A stretch of 64,000 bases of DNA from an uncultured Desulfosarcina sp. (GTDB lineage Bacteria; Desulfobacterota; Desulfobacteria; Desulfobacterales; Desulfosarcinaceae), in the NCBI GenBank assembly GCA_963674945.2, contig CAXXWQ010000003.1, positions 1,792,001 through 1,856,000 of the forward strand, in the 5' to 3' direction. Positions 4,621 to 53,957 of this stretch are shown here, one piece after another. The notes beneath the pieces are model-generated. The model made no database searches. It was not told the origin of the DNA and was given only the letters and a program-made list of their open reading frames with translations. The position numbers and the translations under genes are program-made. Every line of letters starts with the position of its first letter. Position 1 is the stretch's first letter.

Positions 4621-6180
4621 CGGCATTATCCGCCTAAGTTTGGGGATCAGTGGTGGGTAACCGTGGTGACAAATGGGCGAACAGATGGCTACGGTGCTCG
4701 GATTTCGGGTGGGTCGGCCACATTGCGCAAAAGATGTTCGAAGTCACGAAAGAGCATCAACCGGATACCAGTACGCAGGTTGTTCCAATACTCTTTTCGG
4801 GAACTGAATTTAGACCGGCAATACTGATAACCACGATCACACAGTTCCAGGATTTGATGGATGAAGAAAGCCAACAGGTTCAGAATAAAAAAGGTGTTCG
4901 ACAAATAACGTTGGCCGTGACCGAAGTTGTGTTCGATATGGTAGCCTTGATTCTTCAAAGTGTTGAACGTTTCGTTTTCGATTTTCCAGCGCGCCCGACC
5001 GGCGCGTACCAATTCGACGACATTGGCCTTGCTCACCTTACGGTCGGTGACCCAGCTGTTGTGGTAGGTGGCCTTTTGCCCCACGTGCAGCCAATACTCG
5101 AAAAAGTTCACCGGATCGGCATTGCGGCTACCGTTGAGAGGCACCTGGTTAACCCAACGATAAACGTGGCGGCGCCCTTTATCGTCGGTGAATTGTAGGT
5201 GACCGCATTGTCCGAGCCCATCGATTTCGTCAACCCACTGGAACAGCAACTTGTGATCGGTGGGTTTGGCCACCAGGATAAAGGACATGCGGGCATCTTT
5301 CAACACATCGATAAAGGGCTGTTTGGAGTATAGCCCATCGGCGGTAATGATCATCTTCAGTTTTGGGTGAGTACGGCGGATTTTGTCGACGATCCGTTTT
5401 CCCGCATTGATCTCGCAATCCTGCTTGGTGGTGCCGTCGGTATTGGCAACGGGCTCCGGGGCCAGGGGCAAAACCTGGCGCATGTACGGGTTGAGCATAA
5501 CGGCCTGTAAGATCTGATGTGAGTAACGGGTCGATCCTTTTGCGCCTTTATGAGTCAGGCAACTGGGACAGTGAATCTTTTCGGAAGAAAAATACTGTGA
5601 GCCGTCCAATGCAATCAAATGGTGCCCGCTTTCCAACTTGTAGGCATCCAGGTACTTGCCCCGCTGCAAGCATTGTAGCAAAAAGGGAAATGCCGGATGA
5701 ATCGCTTCGGTTGGAATATTATCCAACGTCTGGCGCAAAGCACTGTCGCTGGGGATGTCTTTAACCGCAAACATGGCTTTCAGATTACTGTCTTGCATGC
5801 GATCGTGCATGCGCCGCTGAAAAGAGAGAACGGAAGGGTCTTGAAAAAACATCATCGCCAGGGCACTCATCAAACAGTCATGCAGCGAATAGTCGACCTT
5901 GCCCTTTTGCCGGGGATCATCGATCTTTTCGAAAATCGCCGAAAGGGCTTTTCTCATCGTGCTGAAGCTCAGATGTTTTTTGATGTGCATGCCGTCCTCA
6001 TAGCCATGTATAACCTACTGTTATCTATAGCAATAAAAACGGCACGCGTCTAGATTTAATATCTCTAATTATAACAAGTTGTTACGTATTTTGCGGGGGT
6101 TTGGCTTCGCGAAATTTTATTTTCGATACGCTAGCAAACACACAAAAACTGGGATGAACCCCGTTCAGCCAAAACTGCTG
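4621..6180 (-). mobile_element. insertion sequence carrying the transposase; ends approximate
   Basis: Single transposase gene. Only a weak terminal IR (CGGCATTATCCGCCTAA vs CAGCAGTTTTGGCTGAA, 10/17); no clear TSD. Confidence 0.5.
4689..5990 (-). CDS. DDE transposase (ISNCY / IS4-superfamily-like)
   Basis: N-terminal DPR...YSLHD, ALDG, KQDCE, ADGLY, and GRARWKIENETFNTLKNQGY (RWxIE motif); ORF intact. Confidence 0.9.
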   Translation of the reverse strand: MHIKKHLSFSTMRKALSAIFEKIDDPRQKGKVDYSLHDCLMSALAMMFFQDPSVLSFQRRMHDRMQDSNLKAMFAVKDIPSDSALRQTLDNIPTEAIHPAFPFLLQCLQRGKYLDAYKLESGHHLIALDGSQYFSSEKIHCPSCLTHKGAKGSTRYSHQILQAVMLNPYMRQVLPLAPEPVANTDGTTKQDCEINAGKRIVDKIRRTHPKLKMIITADGLYSKQPFIDVLKDARMSFILVAKPTDHKLLFQWVDEIDGLGQCGHLQFTDDKGRRHVYRWVNQVPLNGSRNADPVNFFEYWLHVGQKATYHNSWVTDRKVSKANVVELVRAGRARWKIENETFNTLKNQGYHIEHNFGHGQRYLSNTFFILNLLAFFIHQILELCDRGYQYCRSKFSSRKEYWNNLRTGIRLMLFRDFEHLLRNVADPPEIRAP

Positions 6181-6245
6181 ATTGTTGCCGACGTTTCTAT
6201 TTCCGATTGGGCAAACCTTTTTAAAATTACCAAACGGTGGCAACC

Positions 6246-6863
6246 ATGGATATCAACACCTGTTTTACGCTTCTGGATTTAGATCCGAATGCGACGATGA
6301 CGGAGGCGAAACTCGCATACAAAGCCCAGGTCCGTCGCTGGCATCCCGATCAGTTTCCCGCAGGTTCCGTCACGCAAATGGGGGCACAAGAGCAATTAAA
6401 ACGGATAAACATTGCCTACGACCGCATCAAGGCTCACATAACGAGCCGTCCACATCGCCCAACGGCTCCACAGAAACAGTCTTCCTCCCGGAATCGGGGC
6501 AGCGCAACCGGATCCCAGGACCAGCGAGCCCATTCGCGAGAAACAAAAAAACGTGGTTGGATCGATACCCTGTTCGACATGCTCAACACTTTTTCCGAAA
6601 ATCATACCGCCTCTTCCACCCCGTCAACGCAGGAAAAAGCGAACAGAAAAAAGCGGAAACGCTTCGACCAGATCCTCGGCGAAATGACCGGTGACACCAT
6701 CTCAAAAGATGCGCGTTCCGGCAAGAACGCGTTCGTCAGAAGTCCCATGCCAAATCGACACAGGAAAGGCCGTGGCAGCACCATTGGATCTGTGGAGGGG
6801 ATAAAAAGTCCAGACCCCATAAGGCCGATCGGCCGGGTCAGGGGAATCGGAAGAAGCCGATAG
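6246..6863 (+). CDS. J-domain (DnaJ class C) protein
   Basis: N-terminal J domain with WHPD, followed by a low-complexity basic tail. Confidence 0.8.
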   Translation: MDINTCFTLLDLDPNATMTEAKLAYKAQVRRWHPDQFPAGSVTQMGAQEQLKRINIAYDRIKAHITSRPHRPTAPQKQSSSRNRGSATGSQDQRAHSRETKKRGWIDTLFDMLNTFSENHTASSTPSTQEKANRKKRKRFDQILGEMTGDTISKDARSGKNAFVRSPMPNRHRKGRGSTIGSVEGIKSPDPIRPIGRVRGIGRSR

Positions 6864-49996: not shown

Positions 49997-51109
49997 ATGT
50001 CCCCACATCCCCATACAGACAAACCTGCCGGGCCACACGCTCCCGGAAAGAAAAACACCTTGCGACTCGTGGCCTGGGAGACCACGAGAAACTGCAATCT
50101 CTCTTGCATTCATTGCCGTGCCTCCGCCACCAACGGCCCCTATACGGGAGAATTATCGACGGATCAGGCCTTTCGCCTGTTGGACCAGATCGCCGAAGTG
50201 GCAAAACCGATCATCATTCTCACCGGTGGTGAACCGCTATTGCGAAATGATATCTTCGACATTGCCGAATATGGCGATGGATTGGGGCTTCGAATGGTCA
50301 TGGCGCCAAACGGGACCTTGATCACCCGAGAAGTTGCCCATCGGATGGCGGCTTCCGGTATCCAGCGCATCAGCGCCAGTATTGACGGGGCGACAAAAGC
50401 GGTCCACGACCGATTCCGCGGCGTTGACGGTGCATTCGATGCCGCCATCAAGGGAATCGAGCATGTGAAGGCTGCGGGGATCGAATTTCAGATCAACACC
50501 ACCATCACCAAATCCAATCTGGAACAGATTCCCAAGATTCTCGAATTGGCCGAAGAGTTGGGTGCAGTGGCACATCATATTTTCTTGTTGGTTCCCACGG
50601 GAAGGGGAAAGTACATCGTCGATCAGGCCATCGATGCGAAGGCATACGAAGAGACGCTAAATTGGTTTTACGACCAACGGGAAAAGACCACTTTGCAGCT
50701 AAAGGCCACGTGTGCCCCCCATTATTACCGTATTCTCCGTCAACGGGCCAAGGCGGAAGGAAAAACCATTTCTTTTCAAAGCCATGGACTCGATGCCGTC
50801 ACGAGGGGTTGTCTTGCCGGTACGGGATTCTGTTTCATTTCCCACACCGGCATCGTGCAGCCGTGCGGGTACACGGATGTGGCGTGTGGCGATATCACCA
50901 AGACCGACTTTGCAGCGGTGTGGAACCACGCCCCTGTTTTTCAGAGGCTTCGCGATTTTCGGCAATTAGAGGGAAAATGCGGACGTTGCGAATACCGTGC
51001 CGTCTGCGGCGGATGCCGCGCACGGGCATTCGAGGCAACTGGCAATTACATGGCCGAAGAACCTTTGTGCGCCTATCAACCGGAAAAAGCCGCACCATCC
51101 ATTGCATGA
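49997..51109 (+). CDS. ahbD: AdoMet-dependent heme b synthase (radical SAM, NirJ2-type)
   Basis: LRLVAWETTRNCNLSCIHCRA, FLLVPTGRG, KATCAPHYYR, GCLAG, CGRCEY..CGGCRARA. Confidence 0.92.
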   Translation: MSPHPHTDKPAGPHAPGKKNTLRLVAWETTRNCNLSCIHCRASATNGPYTGELSTDQAFRLLDQIAEVAKPIIILTGGEPLLRNDIFDIAEYGDGLGLRMVMAPNGTLITREVAHRMAASGIQRISASIDGATKAVHDRFRGVDGAFDAAIKGIEHVKAAGIEFQINTTITKSNLEQIPKILELAEELGAVAHHIFLLVPTGRGKYIVDQAIDAKAYEETLNWFYDQREKTTLQLKATCAPHYYRILRQRAKAEGKTISFQSHGLDAVTRGCLAGTGFCFISHTGIVQPCGYTDVACGDITKTDFAAVWNHAPVFQRLRDFRQLEGKCGRCEYRAVCGGCRARAFEATGNYMAEEPLCAYQPEKAAPSIA

Positions 51110-51167: not shown

Positions 51168-51785
51168 TTAATAGGCACGCAGTTGGAAGCTGATTTGCCG
51201 GTGAAGGCGATTGATTAGATCTTTCATGATTTCAGATTGATAATCGGTAATCGACATAAACTGCACCCCAACGCCATCTTCCTCTTGGCGAACAACGCAC
51301 CCTTTCAATTTCAAGGACAGATGATCGTCTGTGATGGTGAAACAGATGGAGAGACGCTGCCCCGTGTCGAAGCGCTCGAAACTTTCCACGAACATGCCCC
51401 CGACACTGATATCCATGGCGAAACAGTTGATGGCCCTTCCATTGGTCACCAGGTCCAAGGTAATTTGGCAGGGAACCCGTGGGTACTGCCGGAGCATGGC
51501 GAACTGTTTCTCTTCGTACCGTTTCATGAAATGAATCAGGTCCTGTTCCGACAATTGATGTATCAATAAAAATATGCGGGCAACGAGCAGTTGTCGATCT
51601 TTCATGTCTACACGATTACCCTTTCGAAATTTTGGTATCTGCAGCAATTCAGACTTTTCACGAACGCCCAGGTCCGAAAAAAGGGGAAGCACCGACACCA
51701 ATTGTTCATCCGTCATTTTGTAGATAGCGATGGAAAGACGGGTGACAAGCTTTTTCAGATTCGCCTGTCCGATGGTATCTTTCAT
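51168..51785 (-). CDS. PilZ domain protein
   Basis: RQYPR and DISVGG c-di-GMP motifs, GVGVQF; GGAG SD. Confidence 0.85.
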   Translation of the reverse strand: MKDTIGQANLKKLVTRLSIAIYKMTDEQLVSVLPLFSDLGVREKSELLQIPKFRKGNRVDMKDRQLLVARIFLLIHQLSEQDLIHFMKRYEEKQFAMLRQYPRVPCQITLDLVTNGRAINCFAMDISVGGMFVESFERFDTGQRLSICFTITDDHLSLKLKGCVVRQEEDGVGVQFMSITDYQSEIMKDLINRLHRQISFQLRAY

Positions 51786-52257
51786 CGATACGATCTCCAT
51801 ATATGGGTACAAAAACGAAAAAGATTTTATCTCCAATGCAAGAAAAAGATCAAGTATCAATGAAATGATACGATATAGAACTAAACGAGCTTACGATGGG
51901 ATCGAAAATCCGTTTCCATAGATGTAGCGTTTTGGCCGAAGGTTTCGAACCCAAATGATCATTTAAAAAAAACGGATTGCCGATGAAAGCGTTATTGAAA
52001 CAGGCATTAGAAATAATAAAAAGCTTGAAAAATCAATAACAAAAAGGGTATTAGAGATAATTACACCTTTTATGACCTTCCCACATCGATATGATTCGTT
52101 TTTGTAACGGCAAGAGGCGAAACCAATCGCCCGGGGGAAAGAATCGTAAGTTACAATGGTGGCGAGACAAGCCTCCAAACCAATACAGATACCGGTGAGG
52201 GCTTGGATGAGGCGGTCACTTTCAAGACAGAATTGAACTAGCAAGGAGGAAGAGACT

Positions 52258-52653
52258 TTGTCGTATATCCTTGATCAAGAGCAACTGGACGGTTTGGAAG
52301 AAGCGTTGACTTCCGATTTGATGACGCTGGGTCTGCAATCCGTTATCCTCATTGACATGGCCGGCAATGTCATCGTTAACCTTGATGATGGCAATGTGCA
52401 CCATGATGTCTATTCCTTGGCGGCATTGGCGGCCGGAAATTTTGGTGCCGTGAACGCGATGGCTTCCATCATCGGTGAAGAAGAGTTCTCCCTTCTCTTT
52501 CATAAAGGAAAGAGCGAGAACATAAACTTCACGAAAATCATGGATGATTTTCTTCTGGTGTCAATTTTCGGAAACGATGTTTCATTGGGGTATTTAAGGC
52601 TTAAAATCGATGAGGTGATAAAGAAAATCAAGGAGCTGATTAATCGGGCGTAG
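52258..52653 (+). CDS. mglB: MglB-like roadblock/LC7 protein (GAP)
   Basis: LIDMAGN, SLAALAAGN, GEEEF..LFHKG, SLGYLRLKI; AAGGAG SD with TTG start. Confidence 0.88.
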   Translation: MSYILDQEQLDGLEEALTSDLMTLGLQSVILIDMAGNVIVNLDDGNVHHDVYSLAALAAGNFGAVNAMASIIGEEEFSLLFHKGKSENINFTKIMDDFLLVSIFGNDVSLGYLRLKIDEVIKKIKELINRA

Positions 52654-52737
52654 CATGAAAGCCCCATCACGTAATTGAATCGGCCCTTTTTTCGCCGGGC
52701 TGTACTACCCGAATCCAATCAAATACGGGACGAAAGC

Positions 52738-53343
52738 ATGGCGTTCATCAATACAAAGACGAAGGAAGTTCAGGTAAAAATTGTCTATGTAGGTCCCGGA
52801 AGGGGAGGCAAAACGACCAATCTGGAGTATATCTTCAGCAAGATTCGTCATCGCATCGAATCGGATATGGTCAGTATCAAAACCCAGGGAGACCGGACCT
52901 TATTCTTCGATTTTTTGCCCTTTGAATTAGGTGTTATCAAAGATTACTACGTGAAAACACAGTTGTATACGGTTCCTGGCCAAATCAAGTACAATGCAAC
53001 CCGAAAACTCGTATTGAAAGGCGTGGACGGAATTGTTTTCGTTGCAGACTCCTTGGTTGAACGACGGGAAAACAATATTCATTCTCTGGAAAATTTGGAA
53101 AGTAATTTACAATTTCACGAACTCGACATCAATACGATTCCAATTGTTTTTCAATATAACAAACGCGACATGGCAAAACAGGGCATTCCGATTCTCGATG
53201 TTGAGACCATGGAGAAAGACCTCAACGAAAAACTAAAGGCGCCAAGTTTCACTGCCAGTGCCCTGACGGGAGAAAATGTCGTTCATACTGCGAAAGCCGC
53301 TATCTCGCGGACAATTGTGGCGGTCCGGGATAAACTTCTTTAG
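52738..53343 (+). CDS. mglA: MglA-like small Ras-family GTPase
   Basis: KIVY.GPG..GKTTNL, DRTLFFDF, LYTVPGQ, GVDGIVFVADS, QYNKRD. Confidence 0.93.
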   Translation: MAFINTKTKEVQVKIVYVGPGRGGKTTNLEYIFSKIRHRIESDMVSIKTQGDRTLFFDFLPFELGVIKDYYVKTQLYTVPGQIKYNATRKLVLKGVDGIVFVADSLVERRENNIHSLENLESNLQFHELDINTIPIVFQYNKRDMAKQGIPILDVETMEKDLNEKLKAPSFTASALTGENVVHTAKAAISRTIVAVRDKLL

Positions 53344-53354
53344 GAGGTGCCGAA

Positions 53355-53957
53355 GTGGACAATAATGCAAAGGATACATTCGCCTTTGATCTGGAAAATC
53401 GTCTCGATGATTTCTTTAGTGATTCCGAGCCTCCCCCGGATGCGGCACCGGAACTCGAAGATGACTTTATTCTAAAGGATTTGAAGTCGGCGGTGCTGGC
53501 CATCGACTGGGAAATCACCGATGATGCACTCGATGATTTCATCACACAGCTCCACAACCTGGAGGAACCATTTGAGAAAGACAAGGTAAACCAGACGTTC
53601 CTCAAAATACAGATCGCACTGGCGAAATATCTTCGTCTCCACAAGTCGAAGGCACATCCAGATGCCATAAAATGTGTGATGGCCGTCTATTCGGCCCTGG
53701 AAAAAGCGGTTACCGAAACGGAACTGAGCCAGGGTGAAAAGGAGGAGATGCTGGCGGAGCAGGTGAAACGATTCAAACAGTTAAAGGCGATGATTTTCCA
53801 GTCTAAATCTGCAACATCCAAGGCAAGCGACGAAGGCCCGTCGTCGAAAAAGCTGCCGGACATGGACAAACTGATCGACGCCATTGCTGATCTCAAATCA
53901 ACGGTTTTGCAGGAGATTGCAGCCATTCGAAAGGAGATCGAACAGCTGCAAAAATAG
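53355..53957 (+). CDS. acidic helical hypothetical protein (IDWEI motif)
   Basis: AGGAGG SD, GTG start 11 nt after mglA; LKSAVLAIDWEITD; C-terminal coiled coil. Confidence 0.8.
   Translation: MDNNAKDTFAFDLENRLDDFFSDSEPPPDAAPELEDDFILKDLKSAVLAIDWEITDDALDDFITQLHNLEEPFEKDKVNQTFLKIQIALAKYLRLHKSKAHPDAIKCVMAVYSALEKAVTETELSQGEKEEMLAEQVKRFKQLKAMIFQSKSATSKASDEGPSSKKLPDMDKLIDAIADLKSTVLQEIAAIRKEIEQLQK

Follow-up and report, generated by a model that had tools for sequence, protein, structure and literature searches.

We describe a third gene, here called orf3, that follows mglB and mglA in the genome of an uncultured Desulfosarcina sp. and belongs to a large, unannotated family found as the third gene of mglB–mglA operons across the phylum. 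The proteins of this family combine copies of an acidic motif with a disordered linker and a CheA-P1-like helical bundle, to which a CheW domain is added in some members. The MglB of these operons is of a short type, which is devoid of a Myxococcus-type helix at its C-terminus (the Ct-helix); in the loci examined, the Myxococcus-type tail (...EITDDDIDNLF) and a nearby orf3-family gene never occur together. Hence, we tentatively propose, at what we hold to be a little less than an even chance, that Orf3 is the third subunit of a distinct and widespread MglA/MglB switch, whose acidic helix would dock on MglA much as the Ct-helix of Myxococcus MglB does.

The mglB–mglA–orf3 Operon

The window, i.e., the whole stretch of 64,000 nucleotides that was analyzed, carries the three genes and the parts of Orf3 as follows:

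52258..52653, + strand: mglB, TTG start, 131 aa, ending ...KIKELINRA; a Roadblock/LC7 protein without a C-terminal extension (the "short" MglB type)
52735..53343, + strand: mglA, a 202-aa Ras-like GTPase by its PDB 6hjh_A match and motifs
53355..53957, + strand: orf3, third gene of the operon, GTG start, 200 aa, unannotated family
53379..53423, + strand: N-terminal acidic amphipathic motif FAFDLENRLDDFFSD, Orf3 residues 9–23, a look-alike of the MglB Ct-helix
53424..53462, + strand: Pro/acidic linker, Orf3 residues 24–36, predicted to be disordered
53463..53816, + strand: five-helix bundle with a CheA-P1-like fold, Orf3 residues 37–154, holding the IDWEI signature
53859..53951, + strand: C-terminal amphipathic helix, Orf3 residues 169–199

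The mglB product matches the Pfam Robl_LC7 model (PF03259) with 27.7 bits, above the cut-off of 23, and is the sole match to that model in the 7.08-Mb genome. The NCBIfam MglB model (NF052242, for the Thermus-type MglB) gives 49.2 bits, which is under its equivalog cut-off of 200 bits; as judged by these scores, it is an MglB-family protein and not an NF052242 equivalog. The MglB chains 6izw_B, 6h5b_B and 6hjm_A of the PDB match it with E-values of about 1.5–2.2e-13, the best being M. xanthus MglB (6izw_B, E 1.5e-13). In this last alignment, residues 25–124 pair with residues 27–125 of a 167-residue chain; therefore, the protein stops a few residues past the Roadblock core, ending about seven residues beyond the last aligned core position, with the acidic Ct-helix extension absent. 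Its counterparts across 48 related loci are similarly 130–141 aa long, and the one long relative recovered (P0241, 278 aa) lies on a 901-bp contig and is uninformative.

The start of mglA lies on the same strand, 82 nt past the mglB stop. Residues 2–192 of its product match M. xanthus MglA (PDB 6hjh_A, E 1e-54), and the motifs DRTLFFDF and TVPGQ are both present. A second MglA paralogue, 57% identical to the first, is encoded elsewhere in the genome without an accompanying MglB. The third gene, orf3, starts 11 nt past the mglA stop and is preceded by a GGAGGTG ribosome-binding site; in its product, the motif FAFDLENRLDDFFSD is followed by SEPPPDAAPELEDD. The short MglB, this characteristic start of Orf3 and the acidic, proline-rich linker behind it had all been described in an earlier note on this DNA, and each is present at the positions listed above.

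The Orf3 Family and Its Acidic Motif

Our searches recovered 273 homologues of Orf3 at E<=1e-3. The protein itself has no match among Pfam, NCBIfam or PDB sequences, and its nearest clusters in the ESM Atlas are labeled 'hypothetical protein' and share no common Pfam family. Full-text literature searches returned no paper on the family; a 2014 survey (PMC4316618), the text of which describes the gene neighborhoods of MglA groups 1, 4 and 5 as varying widely, may list such neighbors in its supplementary tables.

The most conserved part of Orf3 is its N-terminal block: D7, T8, F9, A10, D12, L13, N15, R16, L17, D18, F20 and F21 do not vary among 28 homologues whose overall identity is only 49–84%. 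A relaxed form of the motif pattern is found in 85 of 93 family ORFs, and those inspected among the remaining eight contain near-variants. These observations bear out the conservation of the motif, which the earlier note had named as a check on its reading. The pattern occurs at a density of 2.77 per 1000 aa in the family ORFs as opposed to 0.080 in 8519 other six-frame ORFs, i.e., 34-fold lower in the latter. The acidic core, [IL]-D-x-[LF]-F, is present in 1 to 5 copies per member and at variable positions, preceding the domain in most members and lying behind two domains in family f7, while the linker between motif and domain ranges from about 15 to 90 residues. Such behavior is that of a functional short linear motif.

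Two natural fusions place the motif on MglA itself: P0121 consists of MglA and three motif copies, and P0122 of MglA, the motif and the domain. The other 118 of the 120 long MglA forms listed have different extensions, with neither motif nor domain. When P0121 is modeled with AF2, the copy of the motif adjoining the MglA domain has a pLDDT of 87/76, and its two near-identical distal copies have values of 61/53 and 64/65; the raised value of the proximal copy may be trivial, as a linker of merely 7 residues joins it to helix α5. Each fusion is a single-member cluster and P0121 has an Arg-rich, frame-shift-like end; therefore, both might be assembly errors.

Association with the Short MglB Type

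The arrangement seen in the window is strongly conserved. MglB, MglA and Orf3 are encoded on one strand in 27 of the 29 top class-level loci, in the order mglB–mglA–orf3 in 25 of these and mglA–mglB–orf3 in two, and the same three-gene arrangement recurs without exception at 20 more distant loci from the same order. Overall, the pairing of mglB and mglA is kept at 47 of 49 class-level loci. At the level of the phylum, the domain gene directly follows mglA in 36 of the 37 short-MglB loci whose downstream DNA is readable, and in the 37th it lies about 5 kb further on. Among the 401 genomes sampled at each level, 238 of the class and at least 71 of the phylum carry the module.

A second type of MglB (n = 21) bears a tail of 25–32 aa, which ends in ...[FL]xE[IL]T[DE]xDI[DE]xLF in every case. 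No match to the Orf3 domain was found anywhere in the 4.3–7 kb loci around these 21 genes, and the 21 genomes do not overlap with the 71 orf3-positive ones; a broad profile run over five of the 21 returned only E-values of 1.5e-3 and 0.24. Thus, as anticipated in the earlier note, an orf3-type gene goes with short MglB (36/37 loci in the phylum, 47/49 in the class) and not with long-tailed MglB (0/21), although this correlation counts as one event rather than many, since on a quick MglA tree the short-versus-tail pattern amounts to a single split, with an SH-aLRT of 100 for the tail clade.

The same tree bears on how the two types arose. The earlier note had raised the possibility of a split MglB, which, taken literally, means that a full-length mglB was recently divided, with its detached tail becoming the N-terminus of Orf3. 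At L031, L032 and L051, the order is mglA–mglB–orf3 (or a second mglB is included) and orf3 sits directly behind an mglB, which speaks for such an event. Nevertheless, a simple split of mglB would not yield the usual order mglB–mglA–orf3, and Orf3 has a 110-residue domain of its own. Moreover, the two MglAB types are old, deep sister clades on the MglA tree, which comes close to refuting a recent split, and both types coexist in at least one genome (G745); short MglB also differs from the tail type at the two columns considered next. We hence regard this scenario as exceedingly improbable and rejected it on the strength of the tree and of those columns.

Asn37 and Arg98 of M. xanthus MglB are reported in PMC11016934 to be necessary for GAP activity. 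In the tail-type MglB proteins (n = 21), the column of N37 is occupied by N in 16 and D in 4, and that of R98 by R in all 21. In the short type (n = 91), the former column has A in 71 and S in 18, and the latter has D in 41, E in 35 and N in 7. Such substitutions would fit a role for Orf3 on MglB rather than MglA, either as a RomY-like co-GAP or as a RomR-like partner, with its helix occupying a basic cleft on the Roadblock dimer and the protein making up for the GAP residues missing from short MglB. A further case is G287, whose operon has no mglA but keeps mglB and orf3 side by side, an arrangement that fits a partner of MglB at least as well as one of MglA. There are precedents. RomY, described by Szadkowski et al. 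(2022, PMC9481161) as a co-GAP, is a third MglA/MglB component that binds both proteins, is comparably small (188 versus 200 aa) and likewise has no domain annotation; further, RomR's C-terminal helix is described in PMC12719032 as binding the MglC dimer in a positively charged cleft. By its published description, however, RomY differs from Orf3 in layout, its conserved part being a globular domain at the N-terminus, about 83 residues long (residues 8–89), with a partly conserved C-terminal motif; the account also places its gene away from mglBA and alongside Myxococcus-type MglB. Finally, the natural fusions found are with MglA. On balance, we deem an action of Orf3 on MglB decidedly unlikely.

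A CheA-P1-Like Bundle and Its Possible Chemosensory Connections

In the AF2 model of Orf3, the N-terminal motif is predicted as a helix spanning residues 5–21 (pLDDT 58–72), which is followed by a stretch without secondary structure (residues 22–40, pLDDT 54–63). The bundle is modeled with high confidence (pLDDT 88–96 over residues 41–140 and 84 over 141–150), and the C-terminal helix 169–199, which is conserved among the Desulfobacterales members, has a pLDDT of 79–88. The IDWEI signature corresponds to residues 50–54, and its W52 is the only position invariant across the broad family domain (46 diverse sequences).

A Foldseek search of Orf3 against the PDB returned nothing at E<=1e-3, the best E-value being 0.055; FAT domains bound to LD motifs are among its weak matches. 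With VIA-align, the best whole-chain structural matches of the bundle are CheA P1 domains: it superposes over 111 of the 128 residues of Salmonella CheA P1 (1i5n_A, Z 12.2, rmsd 2.6), followed by 2lp4 (Z 12.1) and 3kyj_A (Z 11.1), a P1–CheY complex being among these matches, with the proviso that, at Z below about 13, helical bundles may match by their common arrangement alone. A Pfam CheW domain ends four of the 37 family proteins scanned. In contrast to CheA P1 (Hpt), Orf3 lacks a Pfam Hpt match and has no kinase, P2 or P3 domain. No phospho-accepting His is conserved among the 46 diverse domain sequences, and the distant clade has another residue in place of Orf3's His101; the bundle was hence rejected as a working Hpt phosphotransfer domain. 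With such a bundle, and with CheW in some relatives, Orf3 is more than the mere donor of a helix that the earlier note had pictured.

These connections raise the question of whether the acidic motif might be a docking peptide for receiver (CheY-like) domains. Acidic amphipathic helices also serve FliM and CheZ as their CheY-binding peptides. In such a case, Orf3 would be an adaptor that joins MglA/MglB to a chemosensory or two-component pathway, with the P1-like bundle and CheW acting on receiver domains and receptor arrays as they do in CheA, and with the motif making no contact with MglA. Beyond the P1 matches, inclusive of the P1–CheY complex, and the CheW domains, this agrees with the neighborhoods in 23 loci, which often encode receiver-DUF4388 proteins, paired CheB-like receivers, HDOD, CheC-like and HAMP proteins. 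A further precedent is RomX of M. xanthus, a three-helix bundle (PDB 8ZNA) that, in the account given in the preprint 10.1101/2024.02.20.581209, bridges a receiver domain and MglA-GTP, and is thus a helical-bundle adaptor of the kind proposed here. Yet, RomX has three helices, as opposed to the five with P1-like topology of Orf3, which itself has no fused receiver domain; no RomX entry is among the 50 structure matches listed for the bundle, an absence that is not evidence of a different fold. Moreover, a single Trp is all that is invariant in the domain, with no conserved phospho-accepting His, and receiver docking would leave unexplained both the tie to the loss of the MglB tail and the presence of the motif, by itself, on MglA in P0121. 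We therefore consider a receiver-docking role of the motif unlikely.

Resemblance of the Motif to the MglB Ct-Helix

The Ct-helix of M. xanthus MglB (residues 147–157, PDB 6IZW) was described by Baranwal et al. (2019, PMC6785124) as binding a pocket formed by helix α5 and the β2–β3 loop of MglA, and it is reported as being required for MglA-GDP binding (PMC6785124, PMC11016934). The legend of S7 Fig in the former also likens the Glu-rich C-terminus of RomR to this helix. Orf3 shares several of its features: RLDDFFSD is an acidic, amphipathic predicted helix with the core [IL]-D-x-[LF]-F, and, in both cases, the helix ends in [IL]-D-x-[LF]-F-S, is tethered by a disordered linker and belongs to a product of the mglBA operon. 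Exactly those loci that have no MglB tail possess the motif. Further, Lys/Arg residues are kept in helix α5 of both MglA clades. The two helices differ in that the motif of Orf3 is N-terminal or in multiple copies and resides on a different protein.

The extent of the sequence likeness can be gauged from the tails themselves. The tail of M. xanthus MglB, taken from the PDB alignment, ends PFAEISDDDIDNLFS, with the printed alignment stopping at S; this was read by aligning a Myxococcus-type MglB from locus L073 to PDB 6h5b_B, whose chain ends ...SPFAEISDDDIDNLFS. The M. xanthus sequence had been given in the earlier note as FAEMSDDDIDNLFSE, which has M where the structure has I but is otherwise correct. 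The gapless register that the note had proposed was reproduced by hhalign, which pairs ENRLDDFFS of the Orf3 motif with DDDIDNLFS of the MglB tails over nine columns (P 1.7e-4, probability 49.5%), whereas controls with MglA and MglB profiles gave 0.72 and 0.63. The likeness goes no further than these approximately nine columns: the spacing to the upstream hydrophobic residue differs by one residue between motif and tail, and HMM searches find nothing in either direction, with the motif HMM, run over 5242 ORFs, retrieving no MglB tail at E<=1 and the MglB-tail HMM, over 8954 ORFs, scoring the third-gene motifs at 1–3 bits, no better than decoy ORFs. Further, an internal segment of the bundle, EITDDALDDF, resembles the MglB tail about equally (score 16.0, P 1.8e-3); therefore, acidic helix starts of this kind are not rare. 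A likeness beyond chance is, as far as these comparisons go, weakly supported.

Accordingly, one may ask whether the resemblance is coincidental, with the motif binding back onto the bundle of the same protein, in the manner of LD motifs with FAT bundles, or contacting some unrelated component of the pole or the pilus, such that Orf3 would be an effector or scaffold of MglA functionally unrelated to the Ct-helix. The failure of the HMM searches in both directions, the equally good look-alike within the bundle and the FAT domains with LD motifs among the weak Foldseek matches are all compatible with coincidence, as are the TPR proteins and T2SSE/MshEN ATPases that are often encoded after the operon. 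However, coincidence would make the exact complementarity between the domain gene and the MglB tail merely incidental; the shared core and its register came from an unbiased profile alignment; and P0121 joins the motif, but not the bundle, to MglA. Hence, a chance resemblance appears rather improbable to us.

A Candidate Scaffold for MglA

Returning to the proposal that Orf3 is a third subunit that grips MglA, we envisage the following mechanism. The tethered motif would bind MglA at the pocket of helix α5 and the β2–β3 loop. MglA, probably also in its GDP state, would thereby be kept on a scaffold distinct from the GAP, and this scaffold might then be linked to receiver or chemosensory proteins by the bundle, or by the CheW part where present. 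In a more far-reaching version, which we view as somewhat unlikely, the MglA-gripping helix would have moved from the GAP, MglB, to a separate and often multivalent scaffold whose basis is a degenerate CheA-P1 bundle, joined by CheW in the early-branching members. Capture or exchange of MglA and its activation would thus be divided between two proteins, and a chemosensory array could be wired directly to the polarity switch. That the helix of Orf3 accelerates nucleotide exchange, i.e., has a GEF role, is speculative; even for the Ct-helix of MglB, such a role is disputed in a 2024 preprint (10.1101/2024.10.31.621274).

MglA/MglB is the model for a bacterial Ras-like polarity switch, and almost all the mechanistic work on it comes from Myxococcus and Thermus. 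Against this backdrop, our findings indicate that much of the phylum uses another form of the module, in which a tail-less MglB without the two reported GAP residues is accompanied by an obligatory, unannotated third protein. If the acidic motif docks on MglA, the implications would be threefold: (i) a function would be assigned to hundreds of 'hypothetical' proteins; (ii) these operons would offer a natural experiment that separates the disputed GAP and exchange or retention roles of MglB; (iii) the CheW and P1-like parts would suggest a route by which chemosensory input reaches the switch. Should Orf3 indeed be such a scaffold, it would represent an undescribed class of small-GTPase regulator.

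A conserved third gene in MglAB operons

The operon and two ORFs close to it are arranged in the window as follows:

49997-51109, + strand: 370-aa ORF bearing a CxxxCxxC close to the N-terminus and rich in Cys at the C-terminus
51168-51860, - strand: 230-aa PilZ-domain protein (Pfam PilZ, E 7.4e-18), divergent and just upstream of mglB
52258-52653, + strand: mglB, 131 aa, TTG start (Pfam Robl_LC7, 27.7 bits against a cut-off of 23)
52735-53343, + strand: mglA, 202 aa (match to M. xanthus MglA, E 1e-54)
53355-53957, + strand: orf3, 200 aa, GTG start 11 nt past the mglA stop, with a GGAGGTG site in front

What the earlier note had observed at the locus is confirmed. MglB, a protein of 131 aa, matches the M. 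xanthus MglB chains in the PDB (E about 1.5e-13) over residues 25-124 against 27-125 and thus stops just past the Roadblock core; it is the only Roadblock match in its genome (7.08 Mb, 4 contigs). Likewise, orf3 begins 11 nt after mglA and carries the acidic motif at its N-terminus (residues 9-23, FAFDLENRLDDFFSD), followed by an acidic, proline-rich stretch. The family, with its IDWEI signature (residues 50-54 of orf3), is indeed unannotated: orf3 has no sequence match in Pfam, NCBIfam or the PDB, and its named homologues are each a 'hypothetical protein' of Desulfosarcina and relatives. We found no paper describing it in the literature searched, and it goes unmentioned in passages of PMC4316618.

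A search of proteins 110-350 aa long gives 273 homologues of orf3 at E<=1e-3, and 238 of the 401 sampled genomes of the class have a match. MglB, MglA and orf3 lie on one strand in 27 of the 29 best non-self class-level loci (order B-A-3 in 25, A-B-3 in 2); of the remaining two, one is without mglA and one is ended by a contig edge. All 20 more distant loci, taken from the same taxonomic order, possess the operon, and MglB measures 130-141 aa in all 48 class-level loci. Among the variants, loci L031 and L032 have the layout mglA-mglB-third gene, L051 and L053 carry two mglB genes, one on each side of mglA, and the N-terminal motif is duplicated in the third gene of L031, L032 and L051. The listed members of one third-gene family, f7, are 560-673 aa long, with two tandem IDWEI domains and the motif C-terminal to both, e.g., PIPEIESRLDEFF.

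As to the neighbours, the 370-aa ORF resembles, on inspection by eye, a radical-SAM/SPASM enzyme. A small PilZ protein adjoins the operon in locus L109 as well; such PilZ neighbours may link the switch to c-di-GMP.

Two old MglAB modules

In a phylum-level sample of 401 genomes, MglB was found in 162 and an orf3-type match in 71, and 60 loci were fetched. Twenty of these were chosen because their MglB scored weaker and their open frames were long; with L104, which proved to be of the same type, they make a long-tailed set of 21. In every one of them MglB is Myxococcus-like and has a tail of 25-32 aa that terminates in a motif, e.g., SPFAEITDDDIDNLFS. A search across these whole loci found the orf3-type domain in 0/21, and none of their genomes is among the 71 orf3-positive ones. 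At the short-MglB loci, searched with a domain HMM refined in two iterations over the proteins of the fetched loci, the domain is encoded by the gene after mglA in 36/36 cases with a readable gene there (E 1e-15 to 1e-29); in L107 it lies ~5 kb downstream, and contig ends truncate L092 and L124. The presence of orf3-type genes goes with short MglB.

In a quick IQ-TREE phylogeny of 112 MglA sequences, the 21 tail-type proteins are separated from all third-gene types by a branch of SH-aLRT 100; thus, the complementarity reflects one evolutionary split rather than many independent events. Genome G745 holds both types, making them old paralogous modules, which rules out the proposed split of MglB in the sense of a recent gene split.

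The window's genome also encodes a second MglA (57% identity; G000:C3:2274976-2275566, outside the window) with no adjoining MglB, which falls inside the third-gene clade. Its neighbours are proteins of 305 and 407 aa, the latter by eye DUF4388/PATAN-like at the N-terminus and otherwise like cyclic-nucleotide-binding domains.

Architecture of orf3 and its motif

An AF2 model built from 31 sequences (mean pLDDT 80.7) divides orf3 into:

residues 5-21: helix (pLDDT 58-72)
residues 22-40: unstructured stretch
residues 41-154: five helices (block pLDDT 84-96, at least 88 up to residue 140)
residues 169-199: C-terminal helix, following a linker

Foldseek returned no match to this model at E<=1e-3. 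VIA-align superposed CheA P1 domains over nearly the whole chain (1i5n_A, Z 12.2, rmsd 2.6, 111 residues; 2lp4, Z 12.1; 3kyj_A, Z 11.1), though helical bundles commonly reach Z values of this size and a designed repeat protein scores alike (Z 12.3). A C-terminal Pfam CheW domain occurs in 4 of 37 family proteins, the other 33 being without a Pfam match. Across 46 diverse sequences of the domain a single Trp is the sole invariant residue and no His is conserved, which makes phosphotransfer by the bundle unlikely.

The motif, conservation of which was at issue, is invariant as an N-terminal block in 28 homologues 49-84% identical to orf3. Its family-wide form, hydrophobic-x-x-x-[ILVM]-[DEQ]-x-[LFM]-F (e.g., EVEDRLENLF, EIDKAIDTLF, EIEDTIDSLF, QIDQTIDNLF), is found in 85 of the 93 family ORFs, and those inspected among the other eight carry near-variants. 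It matches 102 times in the 36,810 aa of the family ORFs and 63 times in the 783,347 aa that make up every other six-frame ORF of these loci, a 34-fold enrichment. With one to five copies per protein at variable positions, the motif behaves, as judged from sequence, like a functional short linear motif.

Likeness to the MglB tail

The M. xanthus MglB ends in ...SPFAEISDDDIDNLFS, as seen by aligning the Myxococcus-type MglB of L073 to PDB 6h5b_B; the tail given in the earlier note was right but for one letter. In passages of Baranwal et al. (PMC6785124), residues 147-157 are modelled as the Ct-helix, bound in an MglA pocket that helix alpha-5 and strand beta2 form with the beta2-beta3 loop. Passages of PMC11016934 treat this helix as the GEF-active region, with GAP action persisting in deltaCt MglB. 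A 2024 preprint concurs that it holds MglB on MglA-GDP but casts doubt on the canonical GAP/GEF assignments (10.1101/2024.10.31.621274).

The tail and the orf3 motif have in common a core [IL]-D-x-[LF]-F preceded by acidic residues. When a profile of 21 MglB tails was aligned to one of 40 third-gene motifs, the proposed register was reproduced, with DDDIDNLFS over ENRLDDFFS (9 columns, P 1.7e-4, probability 49.5%); in control alignments P was 0.72 for MglA and 0.63 for MglB profiles. However, neither the motif HMM nor the tail HMM retrieves the other motif above decoys, the two are one position apart in their spacing to the hydrophobic residue upstream, and the tail profile fits EITDDALDDF within the folded bundle about equally; hence, homology is not established, and the likeness is, at the level of sequence, short and physico-chemical. 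The bundle look-alike lies in the signature segment IDWEITDDALDDF (window 53499-53540, orf3 residues 49-62), whose resemblance to the tail EITDDDIDNLF (P 1.8e-3 in hhalign) may have arisen by coincidence or from a habit of helix capping.

Candidate partners of orf3

Among 120 long MglA relatives listed, two are fusions: P0121 joins MglA to three motif copies, and P0122 joins it to motif and domain. Both are known from one sequence each, and the last residues of P0121 look frame-shifted, so they may be assembly artefacts. When P0121 is modelled with AF2, block pLDDT is 87/76 for the copy adjoining the GTPase domain, as against 61/53 and 64/65 for the two near-identical distal copies, a pattern compatible with docking on MglA that the short linker to alpha-5 could also account for. 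The Lys/Arg of MglA alpha-5 are kept in both clades. The long relatives (355-874 aa; 7999 scored) include names such as Zixibacteria and Nitrospirae; P0123-P0240 have C-terminal extensions without motif or orf3 domain.

Other evidence bears on partners besides MglA. At the columns of M. xanthus N37 and R98, reported in passages of PMC11016934 as necessary for GAP activity, all 91 short-type MglB in the 112-locus alignment have A/S and D/E/N, whereas Arg98 is kept in 21/21 tail-type proteins; the short type may differ in GAP mechanism. In a same-genus species (G287:C3:25759-29379) mglA is gone from the operon and the orf3 homologue begins ~50 nt past mglB; the sole MglA of that genome is of the paralogue type and lies on another contig. 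Further, the neighbour genes at 23 loci include many receiver-DUF4388, CheB-like, HDOD, HAMP, TPR and T2SSE/MshEN proteins. Accordingly, orf3 could instead engage MglB, as the residue differences and the retained mglB-orf3 adjacency would suggest, or a receiver domain, as the abundance of receiver-DUF4388 and CheB-like neighbours would suggest.

Some individual neighbourhoods merit mention. In L106 (5101-6468, - strand) a single protein combining receiver, DUF4388/PATAN and Roadblock/LC7 domains adjoins the operon; receiver-DUF4388 proteins recur near it in L085 and L117, and DUF4388 proteins without a receiver in L094, L109 and L121. L111 encodes on the - strand (reverse-strand offsets 5395-6445) a 350-aa MglB homologue with a long C-terminal extension bearing CxxC pairs, opposite a second, short mglB-mglA-third-gene operon.

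Taken together, the proposal that the orf3 motif supplies an MglA-binding helix in trans is partly supported. That on MglA the acidic helix takes the place of the MglB tail is a reading we infer tentatively, at somewhat less than even chances, and a GEF role for it is speculative. On firmer ground, orf3 typifies a conserved, hitherto unannotated third component of the tail-less MglAB module.
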